A DNA stretch of 63,695 nucleotides from Patescibacteria group bacterium. Lineage in GTDB: Bacteria > Patescibacteriota > Minisyncoccia > 2-02-FULL-40-12 > GWA2-44-9. The notes beneath the pieces are model-generated. The model was not told where the DNA came from, made no database searches, and saw nothing but the letters and a program-made list of their open reading frames with translations. This document shows, piece by piece, positions 1,464-63,695 of this stretch. The translations under genes were made by a program, and so were the position numbers. The stretch spans positions 2,893-66,587 of the forward strand of contig JBBTTB010000004.1 in assembly GCA_038064455.1 (NCBI GenBank), written 5' to 3'. Positions within the stretch are counted from its first letter, which is position 1; every line of letters starts with the position of its first letter.

Positions 1464-4400
1464 ATGTTAACTTCAAAAAACCTTGTGACACTCAAACGAG
1501 TTGTCGCAGGACTCACAACCGTAGCGACAGCATTGTCGTTCACGGGCATGGCGCTGGTTCTTTCCTCTGGTGTAGCGCTCGCAGCCGCAAGGCCTGCAGA
1601 CTACGGTCTTAGGGAAGGAAACACCATCAGCGCTGCTGGATCCTCGGATCCTGATGTGTACATTGTGAATGATCTCGGGTACAAGCGTTTGTTCTTGAAC
1701 CCAGCAATCTTCAACATGTATGGTCACCTTGGCGGTTTCGCCAACGTGAAGACAGTTACACCAGCAACTCGCGATGCATTCGGCACTTCTGGCCTCTTCC
1801 GCAACTGTGAAACAGGCGATCAGAAGGTGTATGGTCTCGATGTGACTGGTGAAGACACCGCGATTCTCCGTTGGGTAAACACCACCGGCGCACAGGCAGT
1901 CGCAGATGACTCGAACTTCTTTGCGAAGGTCTTCTGTATCAACACGAACGAATTCAACTCTTACAACAAGGGTTCTGATTTCACTTCCGTGTTGCAGGTT
2001 CCTGTGTACGTTCGTGGTGGCGTAGCAAGCCCTTCATCCACTCCAGTCTCTGGATCGGTGAACTTCAGCTTAGCTTCGAACAACCCAGCATCAGCAACTC
2101 TCACCACGAATGCACAGGGTGTTGAGTTCCTCCGCTTTAAGGTTATGGGCACAGGCACATTGAGCGAAGTAACGTTCAAGCGCTTGGGCGCAGGTTCGAC
2201 GAATGATTTCGACAACCTGTACGTGTACGATGGTGCACGTCGCTTGACCTCAGGCAAGTCGCTCTCATCTTCCACGGGTGAAGTGACGTTTGCGAACCTT
2301 AACCTCTCGGTAAGCGGTACCAAAGAACTCTCGTTGGTTGGTGATCTTTCAGCAACGGCTGGAAACGTCAACTACTTTGAGTTGAAGGGTGCAATGCTTG
2401 CAAGTGGTTCTGTCGGTGGTTTGCCAGTCACGGGCAACACAATGTCTGTCTCTGGTGCAACCAGCGGTGGTATCACGATGAACAAGGTTGGTTCTATCCC
2501 GAACCCGACGGTTGGTCAGAAGGGCGCACAGATCTCGGAATTCAAGCTTACGGCAAACACCGAAGCAGCTTCCGTGAAGCGCATCACGGTGTTCCAGGGT
2601 GGCACAGTCAAGCCATCGGACATCACGAACATCAAGCTCAAGGCAGGCACGAACGAATGGGCTGGCTCGATGACGAGCGACAGCTATCTCGTGTTTGATC
2701 TTGGTTCTGGTTTCTCGATCGTGAAGGGTGGCGAGCAAGTCTTCAAGGTCTATGCAGATCTTGGCGGCAAGAAGGATGAGGATATAAACCTCTACTTCGA
2801 AAACTCGACCGATATCCTTGCAATCGGCGATCAGTACGGCTTCGGTATGGCCGCAACGATCACTGATATGGACACCGCAGCAGAATCGTTTGACGTAACC
2901 CTTCAGGGTGGCGTTCTCACGATCTCTTCGGGCACACTTGGCTCGGCAAACATTGGTACGGACACATCCGACACCACATTGCTTGAGTACTCAGTGGTTG
3001 CAGCAAGCAACATCGAAGTTCGCAAGACGGAGTTCACGCTCTGTCATGATCCTGCCGGTAATGGTTCTTACGCAAACGCGGCAGACGCCACCAACGGTTG
3101 GGCAGACCTCGATGACTTCAAAGTCACGAACAAGGACACCGGTGTCACCATCATGGGTCCTCAAGATGGTTCTGCCTTCACCACGTCCGATGCCGGCACG
3201 TGTGAAGATGCGGCAACAGGTGCACAGAAGTCCTTTACTGACACCTATGACCTCGTTGCAGGTAAGACCTACAACTTCAAGGTTACCGCAGATATCAAGA
3301 CGGCAAACAGCCGTTCTGGTACGGCGCTCGCAGCTGCTGATGCAATCCAAGTATTCTTGGATAACTTCACAGATGATACTCCTGACATCACTGTCATGAA
3401 GTATGCTGGCACCAACACCGCAGTAGCAGATGCAGACATTGTTCCGCAATCTGATATGGCGGGCCCAGCGTTGACGATCCAGGCCTCTTCCCTCTCATTG
3501 GGTTTGAGCTCTTCAGTCAACGATCAGTCGTTTGTTCGCGGAACCAAGAATGTTGATGCCGTTGGTATCACATTCAAGGCGGCGCAGGCATCGGATCTTA
3601 AGGTCACTGATATTACCCTTACGGGATACATTAGTGATTTGGGCTCGACCTTCTCCGTAGGTTCTGACACTGAAATCACCGTCGCAGACCGCGTCTCGGC
3701 AGTGAAGATCTATGAAGCGGAATCAGGCACACTATTGTCTGGTGCTCCGTCTTCGAACCAGCTCTCCAACACCACTGGTACCGTTACGTTCAACAACTTG
3801 AACTGGAACATTCCAGCGGGCGCAACCAAGACCCTTTTGGTTCGCGTAGACTTGGGCAGTAACCCAACCAGCGCTTCTGGTAGCGACTACTTCGCGTTCG
3901 ATATCAACGCAACATCTGACGTCACCGCATTGGACAGCTCGTCCCGTACGGTCAACGCAGGTACTGCAGATCCGAACGGTGCGACGACTCCGTCAACGGT
4001 AGTAACCGTCATGAACTCTGGTTCATTGGCAGTTGCGCTCAACACGGCTGACTCACCACAGAAGCACTCCGTCTACTGGGGCCAGACAGGTGATGTGGCA
4101 GGCGTATGGCGCTTCACAGCGACCAACGAAGCCCAGTACCTCGAAAAGGTCCAGTTTGGTGAAGATGATATTGGTGGCACACAAGAGACCGACTTCGCAA
4201 CGAACTCGAAGTTGGTACACATCCAGTATAAGAACAAGGCTGGCACCATGCTTACTAAGTCTGGTACGGTCAGTTCTGCTGGTACGGTATCCTTTGGCTT
4301 CTCTGGCGAAGATCGCCCGTACGTACCAAAGGACAGCTCCCTTGACATGAAAGTGATGGTGGATTACAAGACCAAGGCTGAAGGTGCAACCTCCGGCAAG

Positions 4401-60431: not shown

Positions 60432-61742
60432 ATGCTCTCGATTCTCTCTCAGACGCTTTCTGCATTTGAACCACTTCTCCCCGTAGCTCGTGTTATTGTG
60501 GGGGTCCTTTTCAGCGTGTGGTGGTTGTGGCTACCTATAGTTCTTGCCGCACTCGCAATACGTCAGTGGCAAGAATATACACGCACTCGATATCTTCGAG
60601 GCATGAAGTGGGTTCTCCTCGAAATAATTCCGCCTCCTGAAGTACAGCGGAGTCCAAAAATCGCCGAGAATTTTTTTTCAGGTCTTCACGGCGTGTACGG
60701 AAGCTCTTTAAAGTGGAAAAAGATGTTTTTTGATGGCAAGGTTCCTGATTGGTTTACCTGTGAAATTGTAGGCGACGCGCAGGGCATGCGCTTTTATATA
60801 CGCACACCGGCCGGCCACCGTAATCTTTTGGAATCACATATTTTTGCACAATGGCCCGAAGCAGAAATTCGTGAAGCAGAAGACTACACGTCGCGTCTTC
60901 CAAAAGACATTCCCAGTGAGCAGTATGATCTCTTTGGCACGGAGCTTATTTTTACCAAGGAGCACGCATACCCCATCCGCACCTATCCATTCTTTGAAGA
61001 GCAAAGTGGGAAAGATGAATATGTGCGCACTGATCCCATGGCGTCTCTTGCCGAAGTGATGAGCTCGCTGAAGCCCGGAGAGCACGTGTGGCTCCAACTC
61101 ACATTACGTCCTACAGGTGGTGACTGGGTCAAAGAGGGGCAGAAGGTCGTTGATAAAATCATGGGCAAGGAGCCAAAAGTAGAGCAAACGATGGGGCAAA
61201 AGATCATTGCCTTGATAGATGCCATAATTCCTAATTCGAGTGGGGGCAGTGAAGAAAAGAAAGAGAAAAAAGATTTTAACGTGATGGCGCTCTCGCCTGG
61301 CCAACGCTCGGCGCTGGAGCAAATAGAGATAAAACTCTCCAAGCTTGCGTTCAAGGCAGGTTTTCGTTTTGTGTATCTTGCAGAGAAAGCGGCATTTAAC
61401 CGCGCGCGTATTGCGGGGGTTATTGGATACTTTAAACAATTCTATGCGAATGACCTCAACTCCTTTAAACCAAATGGTGAAGTTACTACTTCTTCAGATG
61501 GAAAGCTTGCGTGGCTTTTTCCTTCAAATCGTGGCTTTGGCGCGGCGGAGGCTGAATTTAAAAAGAAAGTTGATTTACTTGAGAAGTATCGTGGCCGCGA
61601 ATTTGTAAAAGATTTCTGCGTGTTGAATATCGAAGAGCTCGCGACCCTGTGGCACTTGCCGGGCCTTAACGTGAAGGCCGCTGGCTTACCTCGCGTCGAA
61701 GCAAAGAAGAGTACGCCACCAGCGAACCTTCCTGGGTTCTAG
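60432..61742 (+). CDS. Membrane-anchored protein of unknown function, partner of the downstream ATPase
   Basis: N-terminal TM; LLEIIPP, FTCEI, AQWPEAEI, YPIRTY, QLTLRP, ILNIEELATLWHLP-like segment; upstream TG-G-TATGAT and AGGGGA RBS. Confidence 0.7.
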   Translation: MLSILSQTLSAFEPLLPVARVIVGVLFSVWWLWLPIVLAALAIRQWQEYTRTRYLRGMKWVLLEIIPPPEVQRSPKIAENFFSGLHGVYGSSLKWKKMFFDGKVPDWFTCEIVGDAQGMRFYIRTPAGHRNLLESHIFAQWPEAEIREAEDYTSRLPKDIPSEQYDLFGTELIFTKEHAYPIRTYPFFEEQSGKDEYVRTDPMASLAEVMSSLKPGEHVWLQLTLRPTGGDWVKEGQKVVDKIMGKEPKVEQTMGQKIIALIDAIIPNSSGGSEEKKEKKDFNVMALSPGQRSALEQIEIKLSKLAFKAGFRFVYLAEKAAFNRARIAGVIGYFKQFYANDLNSFKPNGEVTTSSDGKLAWLFPSNRGFGAAEAEFKKKVDLLEKYRGREFVKDFCVLNIEELATLWHLPGLNVKAAGLPRVEAKKSTPPANLPGF

Positions 61743-61764
61743 TTTCGTGATACACTAACACTAT

Positions 61765-63411
61765 ATGGCGTTGCCTCCGGAAAATCCTGTAGTTCTCTTT
61801 GGGCAAACAACGTTCCGCAATGAGTTGCGGCCTTTTGGCGTTAAAATGGATGACCGTCGTCGGCACATGTATGTCATTGGAAAGACGGGCATGGGTAAGT
61901 CTGAATTACTTAAGAACCTTGCCATTCAGGATATGCGCGATGGTCGCGGTCTCGCGTTCATTGATCCGCACGGAGATCCTGTAGAAGATCTCCTTGATTT
62001 CATTCCCGCGCATCGCGTGAAGGATGTGATTTATTTCAATCCTGCAGATTTAGAGCACCCCATTGGGTTCAACGTTATGGAGCAGGTGAGCTTCGATAAC
62101 CGCCACCTCGTGGCCGATGGCATGATGGCAGTGTTTAAGAAGCTCTGGGTAGACCAATGGTCTGCGCGTATGGAGTACATTCTTAATAACACAATCCTTG
62201 CTCTCCTTGAGGCGCCCGGTTCTACACTCCTTGGCATTAACCGCATGCTTGCCGATAAGACGTATCGCAAGTCTGTGGTGGATCAAGTGTCCGACACTGA
62301 AGTAAAGGCGTTCTGGACGCAGGAGTTTGCAAAATACAATGAGCGCTACGCCGGAGAGGCGACGGCTGCCATCCAGAACAAAATTGGACAATTCGTATCG
62401 AATACACTCATCCGTAATATTGTTGGGCAGGAGAAATCCGCATTCGACATGCGTAAGGCGATGGATGAAGGAAAGATTGTGCTCGTAAATATTTCGAAGG
62501 GACGCGTAGGCGAAGATGCGAGTCGTCTCCTTGGCGCCATGCTGATCACGAAGATCCAGCTTGCCGCCATGTCACGTGTTGATATCGCAAAGAACGAGCG
62601 CAATGACTTTGTGCTCGTGGTAGATGAGTTCCAAAACTTTGCCACCGCTTCGTTCGCAAATATTCTCTCGGAGGCTCGTAAATTTAACTTGAGCCTCGTG
62701 ATCGCCAATCAATACATCGCACAGATGGAGGACGAAGTGCGTGATGCTGTTTTTGGAAACGTCGGCACCATTATTTCATTCCGTGTTGGCGCAGAGGATG
62801 CAGAGATGCTCGAGAAAGAATTCGCTCCCGAATTCGTCGCACAAGACATCGTGAACCTTGGTAAGCGCCAGATTTATCTCAAGCTCATGATCGACGGCGT
62901 TGCCTCAAAGGCGTTTTCTGCCATGACTATGGATACGTTGCCCCCTGAACAAAATACCGAGCGGTTCAACGCAATCGCGGCATCTCGTGCAACCTACGGT
63001 CGCGATCGTGCAGAGGTGGAAAAAAGTATTGGAGATTGGCGGGAGGCTGGTGTTGCGCGCGATGATCGAGAGCCGGAAGATCGTCCACCGATGCGCGAAC
63101 AATCTGCAGAGCCGCGGCGCCCCCAAGGAGATCGTCCACCCCGTCGTCCCCGTGGCGGAGGCGGTGGAGGGCGTGGTGGGCAACAAGAGCGTCCGGCACC
63201 AAGTGGAAAAATCACTGTTTCCGTAGGAGGCAAGGAGCTTTCGCTTGCAGAAGCGATGCGCCAGGGCGTTATGCCGTTCACATCGCAGAAAACGGGGCCA
63301 AGCCAACCTCAAGAACCACGGCAACACATGAATAACGAAGAACTTCGCAAAGTGCTCGCGGTTGCGCTTGGAAAAGATGCTCCCGTTGCTTCCACTGCGG
63401 ACGAACGTTGA
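61765..63411 (+). CDS. VirD4/TrwB-like (type IV secretion DNA-binding domain/DUF87) P-loop ATPase
   Basis: DDRRRHMY, Walker A GKTGMGKS, IDPHGD, Walker B VVDEFQNF, SEARKF, ANQY; charged low-complexity C-terminal tail. Confidence 0.88.
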   Translation: MALPPENPVVLFGQTTFRNELRPFGVKMDDRRRHMYVIGKTGMGKSELLKNLAIQDMRDGRGLAFIDPHGDPVEDLLDFIPAHRVKDVIYFNPADLEHPIGFNVMEQVSFDNRHLVADGMMAVFKKLWVDQWSARMEYILNNTILALLEAPGSTLLGINRMLADKTYRKSVVDQVSDTEVKAFWTQEFAKYNERYAGEATAAIQNKIGQFVSNTLIRNIVGQEKSAFDMRKAMDEGKIVLVNISKGRVGEDASRLLGAMLITKIQLAAMSRVDIAKNERNDFVLVVDEFQNFATASFANILSEARKFNLSLVIANQYIAQMEDEVRDAVFGNVGTIISFRVGAEDAEMLEKEFAPEFVAQDIVNLGKRQIYLKLMIDGVASKAFSAMTMDTLPPEQNTERFNAIAASRATYGRDRAEVEKSIGDWREAGVARDDREPEDRPPMREQSAEPRRPQGDRPPRRPRGGGGGGRGGQQERPAPSGKITVSVGGKELSLAEAMRQGVMPFTSQKTGPSQPQEPRQHMNNEELRKVLAVALGKDAPVASTADER

Positions 63412-63435
63412 AAATTGGGCCACATCTGATACACT
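63408..63435 (+). promoter_or_regulatory. Putative tRNA promoter
   Basis: TTGAAA-16-TACACT with extended TG. Confidence 0.55.
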
Positions 63436-63448
63436 AGGCCCTGCATTT

Positions 63449-63524
63449 GCCCCTATAGCTCAGCTGGTAGAGCAGCTCCCTTTTAAGGAGACGGTCCCAG
63501 GTTCGAGTCCTGGTGGGGGCACCA
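63449..63524 (+). tRNA. trnK: tRNA-Lys (UUU)
   Basis: Acceptor GCCCCTA/TGGGGGC, D arm GCTC/GAGC, anticodon loop CTTTTAA, T arm CCAGG-TTCGAGT-CCTGG, encoded CCA; 76 nt. Confidence 0.97.
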
Positions 63525-63693
63525 GAATCTGACTTTCAGAAAATTGACCGACTTTTTCGTTGGCGGCGCAAAGCGCCGCCCAAGCATTTCCCCCCGACAA
63601 ATCCTCTCCGCTCGGCGCGGTGAGCCGCGCCTCGCGGTTGGCCAAGACGAGGTTCGAGCCAAAGATTTCTTTGGCAGTAACCTTTTTCGCAAA
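63460..63693 (-). CDS. 5'-truncated ORF, possibly the C-terminus of a site-specific (serine) recombinase running antisense into tRNA-Lys
   Basis: The frame is open from the window edge: FAKKVTAKEIFGSNLVLANREARLTAP...WAALCAANEKVGQFSESQILVPPPGLEPG. This resembles, from recall and unverified, the C-termini of tRNA-adjacent CPR recombinases. Confidence 0.45.
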   Translation of the reverse strand, partial: FAKKVTAKEIFGSNLVLANREARLTAPSGEDLSGGNAWAALCAANEKVGQFSESQILVPPPGLEPGTVSLKGSCSTS

Positions 63694-63695
63694 AA

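Follow-up and report, generated by a model that had tools for sequence, protein, structure and literature searches.

A reading frame over a tRNA-Lys gene

This study investigated what is encoded by a reading frame that enters the antisense strand of a tRNA gene from the end of a contig, and whether this frame marks an integrated element. The window, that is, the whole stretch of DNA that was analysed, comprises 63,695 nucleotides from the genome of a Patescibacteria group bacterium (G000), and its end is also the end of contig C4 (C4:66587). The sole tRNA that ARAGORN called in the window was tRNA-Lys(UUU) (anticodon ttt), at 63449-63524 on the plus strand. The first-pass annotation, made from the letters alone, had claimed a minus-strand frame that is open from the window edge, runs 65 nt into this tRNA and stops at 63460. 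The ORF listing reproduced this claim exactly: the frame extends from 63693 to 63460, comprises 77 codons and is open at the window edge, overlaps the tRNA gene by 65 nt, and has its stop at 63460-63462. It reads FAKKVTAKEIFGSNLVLANREARLTAPSGEDLSGGNAWAALCAANEKVGQFSESQILVPPPGLEPGTVSLKGSCSTS, with the terminus ...SQILVPPPGLEPGTVSLKGSCSTS before the stop. The accompanying caveat, that a further minus frame is open, also stood, as every minus frame and two of the plus frames are open over the final ~160 nt of the window. With five of six frames open, the openness of the minus frame was no better than chance and was given no weight; the frame was read as a recombinase on the basis of homology.

The frame as the 3' end of a large serine recombinase gene

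When the window's genome was searched by tblastn with a 527-aa protein of a related genome (G036), only the minus frame matched (55% over 75 aa, E 6e-17). At the G036 locus L013, the same sequence forms the 3' end of this protein, which runs antisense into tRNA-Lys(CUU). The L013 protein carries the Pfam domains Resolvase (residues 5-150; PF00239, 2e-22), Recombinase (173-260; PF07508, 7e-17), and Zn_ribbon_recom (273-336; PF13408, 2e-8), and by this domain set it is a large serine recombinase (LSR). Pfam detected nothing in the 77-aa window frame alone.

The closest relative was L056, a locus on a metagenome contig identified by an exact-pattern scan. Its LSR ends in ...FAKKVTAKEIFGSNLVLANREARLAAPSGEDLSGQNAWAALCAANGKVGQFSESQILV, followed across the junction by PLAGIEPAFQPSQGRVPRLP and the stop, and overruns tRNA-Arg(GCG), a different tRNA from the tRNA-Lys of the window. 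The tail DNA of the window is 94% identical to that of L056, and 53 of 56 residues of the window frame are identical to the C-terminus of the full-length L056 LSR up to ...SQILV. Past ...ILV the two proteins are unrelated, because the remainder is read from two different tRNAs. The DNA past the tRNA (63519-63695) is 70-94% conserved and occurs in several copies in relatives of other families, often at contig ends. On this homology, the window frame is assigned as the 3' end of an LSR gene, of which the last 58 element-encoded codons are visible. The resemblance to the ends of CPR serine recombinases, which the annotation had noted, was borne out by the full-length homologues with Resolvase, Recombinase, and Zn_ribbon_recom domains and by the 53/56 match to L056.

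The features at the end of the window are as follows, with the basis of each in parentheses.

63408..63435, plus strand: promoter-like site of the tRNA-Lys gene, TTGAAA-16-TG-TACACT (TGxTACACT), 13 nt upstream of the tRNA start (consensus match only)
63449..63524, plus strand: tRNA-Lys(UUU), the host target and B arm of attL (ARAGORN)
63460..63462, minus strand: stop codon of the fused recombinase frame, within the tRNA D-arm region (ORF listing)
63463..63519, minus strand: 19 host-encoded recombinase codons, PPPGLEPGTVSLKGSCSTS, from the tRNA antisense strand, replacing the native tail (ORF listing)
63520..63521, strand not applicable: inferred crossover dinucleotide C72-A73, the last acceptor-stem base and the discriminator (42-locus comparison)
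63522-63524, plus strand: tRNA bases 74-76 (CCA), supplied by the element (comparison with G002)
63520..63656, minus strand: 137-nt P' arm, encoding FGSNLVLANRE...SQILV (repeat boundaries q72-208 recur in many loci)
63562..63580, strand not applicable: hairpin 1, GGCGGCGC-AAA-GCGCCGCC, encoding WAALCAA (pairing and covariation)
63614..63631, strand not applicable: hairpin 2, GGCGCGG-TGAG-CCGCGCC (pairing and covariation)
63657..63695, minus strand: recombinase body codons FAKKVTAKEIFGS, past the arm (protein identical to L056 just before the arm)
63658..63675, strand not applicable: palindrome or hairpin 3, GCCAAAGATTTCTTTGGC, encoding AKEIFG, just inside the inner boundary of the arm (pairing)

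The crossover dinucleotide sits within a Val codon, GTG, the reverse complement of 63520-63522. The best match of the P' arm of the window was the upstream arm of L065 (98.5%). Orphan arms in relatives run on into non-coding promoter DNA, unlike 63657-63695 of the window; as this segment encodes body residues, the gene body is attached here in the tRNA-facing orientation and the arm is not an orphan. The tRNA-encoded part of the protein varies in relatives with the tRNA species, yet it always includes G-[ILVF]-E-P, which is read from the T-loop. Outside the element, two genes lie upstream of the tRNA (60432-63411), encoding a membrane protein of 436 aa and an ATPase of 548 aa whose tail is rich in Gly and Arg; both are conserved in the same-genus genomes G001 and G002.

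One tRNA gene with and without the element

The LSR family was present in 41 of 61 related genomes and in neither G001 nor G002. These two genomes, of which G002 is closed, keep the tRNA-Lys and its upstream gene (81-84% identity) without the recombinase tail; the tRNA-Lys genes of the window and G002 are 97% identical. Homology among the same-genus loci ends right after ...GGGGGCAC, beyond which the three genomes read as follows.

Window's genome (G000): ...GGGGGCAC, then CAGAATCTGAC
G002: ...GGGGGCAC, then TAGATTTTTTCC
G001: ...GGGGGCAC, then TAGTATTAC

In the empty tRNA-Lys genes of G002 and G001, A73 is followed by CTA and not CCA. The proposal of an integrated element at tRNA-Lys was upheld by these two genomes, in which the same locus lacks the element and the break falls after GGGGGCAC.

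In G002, a region homologous to contig C5 of the window's genome (589-655 and 1088-5802) lies within ~740 nt past the tRNA-Lys. This synteny indicates that the end of C4 and the start of C5 are neighbours and that the gap between them contains the rest of the element. C5 starts with a segment of ~52 nt (TTCGTTCAGGAGTTTCGGATAAAATGAGTTCGAGCCAAACTGTAAAGACA-CA), hereafter X, which matches the X segments adjoining recombinase arms in L056 and L052 at 94.5-100% identity. The core CA of X (51-52) is followed by CCA (53-55) and unique DNA, CCAAAATGAATG..., and then by msrA. On the minus strand of X, the frame continuous with ...ILV reads V-CLYSLARTHFIRNS-stop; when X of C5 is joined in frame to the window tail, the product ends in VCLYSLARTHFIRNS and the stop. 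The internal, spare copy of the attachment site in L056 reads ...SQILVCLYSLARTHFIKNC before its stop, and the uninterrupted version, also present in L056, reads ...QKVGQFSESQILVCLYSLARTHFIKNC and the stop. Three other readings of X were dropped: an extended -10 promoter, a decayed tRNA 3' half, and the FGSNSFYPK frame, all in favour of the conserved LYxxxRT(Y/H)F ending that the frame continuous with ...ILV gives.

From these junctions, C5 1-52 is identified as attR, consisting of the P arm with 14 native C-terminal codons, followed by the displaced CCA and trailer. The window from 63520 on (its last 176 bases) is correspondingly identified as the attL end of the element. The attL (63520-63521) and attR (C5 51-52) share the core CA, and the sites in G001 and G002 are empty. 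The msrA DNA to the right of attR has no counterpart at the G002 or G001 locus, so we infer the pre-insertion attB of this lineage. Occupied and empty sites were thereby found at one tRNA within one genus, with both junctions identified. Taken together, we consider it highly probable (about 0.85) that 63520-63695 is the attL of a small LSR element whose attP lies in the LSR's own frame and which inserted at the tip of tRNA-Lys(UUU).

The annotation had also placed the att core inside the recombinase gene, with the tail swapped on integration. This claim held, as the L056 tail at another tRNA diverges after ILV and the native ending CLYSLARTHFIRNS is found at attR; comparing the tails, as it had advised, set this native ending at the C5 junction against the tRNA-encoded PPPGLEPGTVSLKGSCSTS in the window. 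The second copy of the tRNA 3' end that it had advised looking for was not found as a direct repeat in the genome; X, which resembles a T-arm, together with the displaced CCA and trailer, occurs instead. The annotation's further idea, that the swap could govern stability or directionality, is speculative.

As a separate observation, the interval between attR and a conserved terminator (C5:~90-590) holds msrA in G000, a small membrane-protein ORF in G002 (L014), and another gene in G001 (L004). What follows tRNA-Lys thus differs from genome to genome in this genus, and earlier traffic of cassettes is a possible cause.

Probable position of the crossover and putative recognition of the tRNA

To place the crossover, the tRNA-arm junction of each locus was aligned with its X-arm junction at 42 related loci. 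Across these loci, attL and the internal attP copy start to match at tRNA position 72, and N72-N73 co-vary between the tRNA and X (CA, CT, TA, and CG). The residue at the junction tracks the core, being V where the codon is GTG or GTA, E where it is GAG, and A where it is GCG. The start of identity at N72 and the co-variation of N72-N73 place the inferred crossover at 63520-63521 of the window, with C74 onward, including the CCA, as element DNA. The shared core is ~2-5 nt. This pattern fits the rule for serine integrases, which require a match only at the central dinucleotide (PMC3783163, with its references 43 and 44).

At all 42 loci, GTTCGA lies in X 23 nt from the core, and the T-loop GTTCGA of every tRNA lies 19 nt from N72. 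In the LI integrase, the zinc-ribbon (ZD) motif is 5 bp nearer the centre in attB than in attP (PMC3783163); the ZD-like offset here is in the same direction and amounts to 4 nt, not 5. These positions suggest that the T-arm serves as a B-type half-site, X as its P-type mimic, and GTTCGA as the ZD site. The peptide motif of X, [LI]-[YF]-x3-[AVI]-R-T-[YHF]-F, is kept, with either CGA or AGA as the Arg codon; where it is AGA, the plus strand of X reads GTTCTA. The usual tRNA T-loop consensus has a purine at position 57. The AGA form departs from this consensus while the peptide motif is kept by a synonymous change, which indicates that X is under coding constraint. The filter on the X motif that was used to pick the sequences biases the entropy figures of X.

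The contig end, read depth, and the state of the element

No other contig overlaps the end of the window, and tblastn with the G036 LSR found no LSR body in the 13 contigs of the 95%-complete assembly. A public unitig of 70 nt covers 63477-63546 with no mismatch at a depth of 9.25, compared with 12.3 for the organism; as it spans the junction of tRNA and tail at the organism's depth, the junction is not an assembly chimera. Over the LSR body, the public unitigs sum to 60-2300x, compared with 12-20x for the genome, and over the tRNA and tail they are fragmented, at 100-300 times the organism's depth. The contig therefore breaks where the LSR gene forms a repeat common across the community.

The missing LSR body raises the explanation that the locus is a dead remnant, in which a decayed recombinase gene has left nothing but its P' arm and a few adjoining codons and mobility has been lost. 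Remnant arms and truncated, frameshifted, or interrupted copies do occur in relatives, for example L016. Nevertheless, the LSR body residues encoded by the 39 nt past the arm boundary are still those of L056, the window arm is 94-98.5% identical to the arms of intact elements, an intact attR with an in-frame native tail is present, and the contig break is expected from the depth of the community-wide repeat. We consider a dead remnant unlikely.

Junction reads of a circular form had been proposed as a check. No excised circle was seen; the sole attP-type unitig (X, CAGAAT, and CTGACTTTCAGAAAATTGACC) has a depth of 17.5, compared with 12.5 for the genome, and is ambiguous, as it could represent a single-copy spare attP, a circle, or the element of another organism. 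No empty-site read or unitig was seen in the public unitigs. Separately, a ~50-nt GC-rich repeat (GACTCCCGTCGCGGTCCCAGCGGGACCGCGCGGTCTCACTCGCCCTCGCTCG) at C4:1-52, the end of C8, and the end of C1 constitutes a second repeat family that breaks the assembly; within C4, a scaffold gap of 100 N lies at 2793-2892, and the first 51 bases of C8 are all C.

The family in related genomes

A scan of species-representative genomes identified 179 relatives, and the best 80 of the 179 span many CPR classes: Magasanik-, Uhr-, Nomura-, Kaiser-, and Moran-bacteria and Parcubacteria. Protein identity to L056 reaches 94% across distant CPR classes, a level that points to recent horizontal spread. The 3' end of the LSR gene overlaps a convergent tRNA in ~56 of 81 loci, involving at least 24 anticodon species.

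An inverted repeat was found in 64 of the 73 assessable loci, with the last 137-172 nt of the LSR gene repeated just upstream of the gene start, so that the repeat brackets the promoter and the LSR gene; in about half of the cases the arms are 100% identical. The outer flank of the upstream arm is X in nearly all cases, which makes it a complete, inverted (spare) attP. Nine loci have a further X, inverted and with the same core, at a distance of 1.3-2.7 kb past the spare attP; CCA or other non-arm DNA follows it. The shared plan is therefore tRNA / arm - LSR - arm' / X' - cargo - X / CCA-trailer, of ~3-5 kb in total. By analogy, the element of the window probably also has a spare inverted attP upstream of the LSR gene and 1-3 kb of cargo.

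Such an inverted repeat would also fit a cassette that is primarily invertible, a flip-flop switch of the Hin/Gin kind for which contact with a tRNA is incidental. Both orientations of the cassette exist in nature: a native-ended LSR is joined to X in L124 and L139 (and in L085, where it is frameshifted), and the upstream arm adjoins the tRNA in L085, L099, L113, and L134. However, presence and absence at one tRNA in one genus shows integration, as do the attR junctions with a displaced CCA and the at least 24 different tRNA targets. Moreover, the orientation with the LSR running into the tRNA is commoner, at roughly 50 to 3 and not 1:1, and the repeat itself is absent from the assembly of the window's genome. 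Inversion as the primary function is improbable, and it is compatible with the integration that we favour.

The AF2 model of the L139 protein gave confident recombinase, zinc-ribbon, and coiled-coil parts and an arm-encoded beta-hairpin (464-473); pLDDT was below 40 for the swapped tail, for whose role the model is uninformative.

Several further observations were made on the family. In elements of G036 (L018 2311-2383, L013 ~371-455, and L019), a promoter TTGACA-17-TATACT and a tRNA-like gene, followed by a terminator, lie between the spare attP and the LSR start. The tRNA-like gene was called as tRNA-Ala by ARAGORN and as tRNA by Rfam (38.7 bits), and it has the acceptor end ...GGTCCAC-A-CCA; possible explanations are a tRNA carried by the element or an internal decoy that resembles attB. 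In L018, a group I intron (4028-4261; Rfam RF00028, 50 bits) lies directly past the LSR 3' end, and the target there appears to be an intron-containing tRNA missed by ARAGORN. Near-identical LSR elements lie on MAG contigs labelled Syntrophaceae, Gammaproteobacteria, Bdellovibrionales, or archaeon (L067, L088, L096, L107, L129, and L133); either these are mis-binned CPR contigs or the host range is wider.

Elsewhere in the window's genome, contigs C1 and C12 start with attR-type X junctions (C1:1-60 and C12:1-60), ...GTATAAATA / CT / CCAAATTAC in C1 and ...TAATACACAC / CG / CCAGATTACC in C12, where X encodes ..KVRMYFEQNPDE. This suggests up to two more elements of the family in G000. C7 ends at C75 of a tRNA-Ser(GGA) with C72-G73, which fits the core CG of C12; for the pairing of the C7 end with the C12 start, the core fits, but the synteny of G002 joins the C7 end to the C3 start.

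Conserved hairpins in the arm

Among 39 distinct arms, 87.7% of the cells pair, and 14 of 22 pairs show compensatory changes. The covariation score of the arm was 0.283, compared with 0.117 in shuffles (none of 500 reached it) and at most 0.10 in slid controls. Hairpin 1 is the strongest, with 96.8% of cells paired and compensatory double changes in six of its eight pairs across the 39 sequences; the peptide over it varies (WAALCAA, WDALRAS, and WRFLQIA) while the stem is kept. In hairpin 2, 78% of cells are paired and six of seven pairs are compensated, in a part of the alignment that is indel-rich. Hairpin 3 (87% of cells paired, little covariation) coincides with the most conserved stretch and with the peak of community depth. 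Both arms of L056 have a hairpin 1 that scores as terminator-like (intrinsic) on the tRNA strand; in the window, the terminator scan did not flag hairpin 1, and the T-tract is weak. Hairpin 1 may plausibly act as a putative stop to read-through from the tRNA into the convergent recombinase gene. Rfam searches of the arms and X returned no family, the only hits being tRNAs and one group I intron in a relative.

The three covarying hairpins, the five open frames, and the empty Pfam result for the 77 aa would also be expected if there were no gene, that is, if a chance open frame crossed a GC-rich, hairpin-rich tRNA trailer with terminators. Against this, only the minus frame matches LSR C-termini, congeners lack the stretch downstream of this tRNA, and the hairpins sit within the coding arms of full-length LSR genes; a chance frame is accordingly very improbable. 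The location at a tRNA 3' end recalls a classical tyrosine-integrase island flanked by a direct repeat of that end, a reading that can be dismissed since the genome holds no direct copy of the tRNA-Lys 3' end (only the conserved arms of other tRNAs match), the adjoining gene is a serine recombinase, and the shared core is ~2-5 nt.

Proposed mechanism and significance

Under integration through an in-gene site, the attP would lie within the LSR reading frame, 14 codons before the native stop, with the layout P arm (X), core, and P' arm, the last of these being the last ~46 codons of the LSR. The LSR would recombine this attP with the tip of tRNA-Lys(UUU), with the crossover at tRNA positions 72-73. 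The sequence comparisons show the outcome at the locus: the tRNA-Lys is intact, with its CCA from the element, and the LSR frame continues on the tRNA antisense strand, with PPPGLEPGTVSLKGSCSTS in place of the native CLYSLARTHFIRNS. The native ending, together with the tRNA's own CCA and trailer, is found at the far junction, attR, at the start of C5. Through recognition of the T-arm, almost any tRNA could serve as a target for the family, provided that its N72-N73 matches the core dinucleotide of the element.

We tentatively suggest, as a possibility that we rate well below even, that the attP inside the gene and its inverted spare copy together act as a self-contained switch of state, with no need of a directionality factor, and that the LSR is also a naturally retargetable integrase. 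As a switch, integration through the in-gene site would re-tail the LSR with residues from the tRNA antisense strand and leave the gene converging on a strongly transcribed tRNA from behind a conserved hairpin; a flip of the cassette on the 137-nt arms, or integration through the spare site, would restore the native RT(Y/H)F tail and make the gene co-directional with the tRNA. As regards retargeting, two changed bases would redirect the LSR to nearly any tRNA gene.

Serine integrases are major genome-engineering tools, for which target choice and one-way behaviour are central questions. In this family, the universal T-arm of tRNAs appears to serve as a B-type half-site and the two-base core N72-N73 as the sole target-specific element. 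If the tail swap or the cassette flip alters activity, this would be a new control of integrase directionality. For CPR, the family represents a highly abundant means of gene flow in tiny genomes and accounts for assembly breaks at tRNAs. A full-text literature search returned no report of LSRs that combine an attP inside their own gene, used at tRNA N72-N73, with a spare attP in inverted orientation.

Comparison with known systems

The Resolvase, Recombinase, and zinc-ribbon domains with a coiled coil that were seen in relatives are those of the integrases of Listeria A118 (LI Int), Bxb1, phiC31, and SPbeta (SprA). The large serine integrases of phages and ICEs share the logic by which attP and attB yield attL and attR and by which a short core must match. 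Unlike in those systems, the attP here lies in the integrase ORF, so that the last ~14 residues depend on the integration state; the targets are the tips of many tRNA genes and not one locus; and most members have a second, inverted attP with long arms that are often perfectly identical. In mycobacteriophages with integration-dependent immunity, which the annotation had named as an analogue, the attP also lies in a coding sequence and integration changes the C-terminus of the protein and with it the protein's behaviour; the gene there encodes a repressor, whereas here it encodes the recombinase itself. Broussard and colleagues are said to have shown in 2013, for mycobacteriophages of clusters G, N, and P, that integration removes the C-terminal degradation tag of the repressor, with proven function.

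The Mu G and P1 C segments (Gin and Cin), Hin, and the R64 shufflon likewise have inverted repeats in coding sequence, whose inversion swaps the 3' end of a gene. In those systems, the enzymes are small serine invertases or a tyrosine recombinase, and the ends exchanged are those of tail fibres or pilins, whereas here the recombinase itself would be re-tailed and the inversion is putative. An invertase of the Hin/Gin type is small (~190 aa) and acts on short inverted hix or gix sites with an enhancer, whereas the recombinase of the present family has ~520 aa with RD and ZD domains, and its arms are 137-172 nt. Insertion sequences and transposons have terminal inverted repeats at both ends and a target-site duplication. 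In this family, the inverted arms bracket only the LSR module, the ends are the tRNA-arm and X-CCA junctions, and no duplication was seen.

In the Myxococcus phage Mx8 (IntP/IntX), the attachment site lies in the integrase gene, and IntP has a changed C-terminal region after integration (Tojo et al. 1996, J Bacteriol 178:4004, cited in PMC4509775). In archaeal integrases of the SSV type, the att site also lies in the gene, and the SSV1 gene is interrupted on integration (PMC5861418). Integration alters the coding sequence of the integrase in both systems, as it does here; unlike the present family, they employ tyrosine recombinases with longer segments of identity, the gene is split into two parts in SSV, and no spare inverted attP is reported for either. 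The criteria of a tyrosine-integrase island do not apply to the locus of the window, as the genome lacks a direct repeat and the adjoining gene encodes a serine recombinase.

Prochlorococcus tycheposons are small cargo elements at tRNA genes in streamlined genomes, and 27 of 937 encode an LSR (bioRxiv 10.1101/2020.12.28.424599). Most tycheposons use tyrosine recombinases, and they occur in another host phylum; the passages of that paper on 'serine recombinase' make no mention of an in-gene attP or an inverted spare site. In LI Int, the distal half-site motif is farther from the core in the P arm by 5 bp (PMC3783163), and the corresponding shift here is +4 nt. By its domain set and att logic, the family belongs with the phage-type serine integrases, and it is best described from its sequences as a variant of serine integrase elements.
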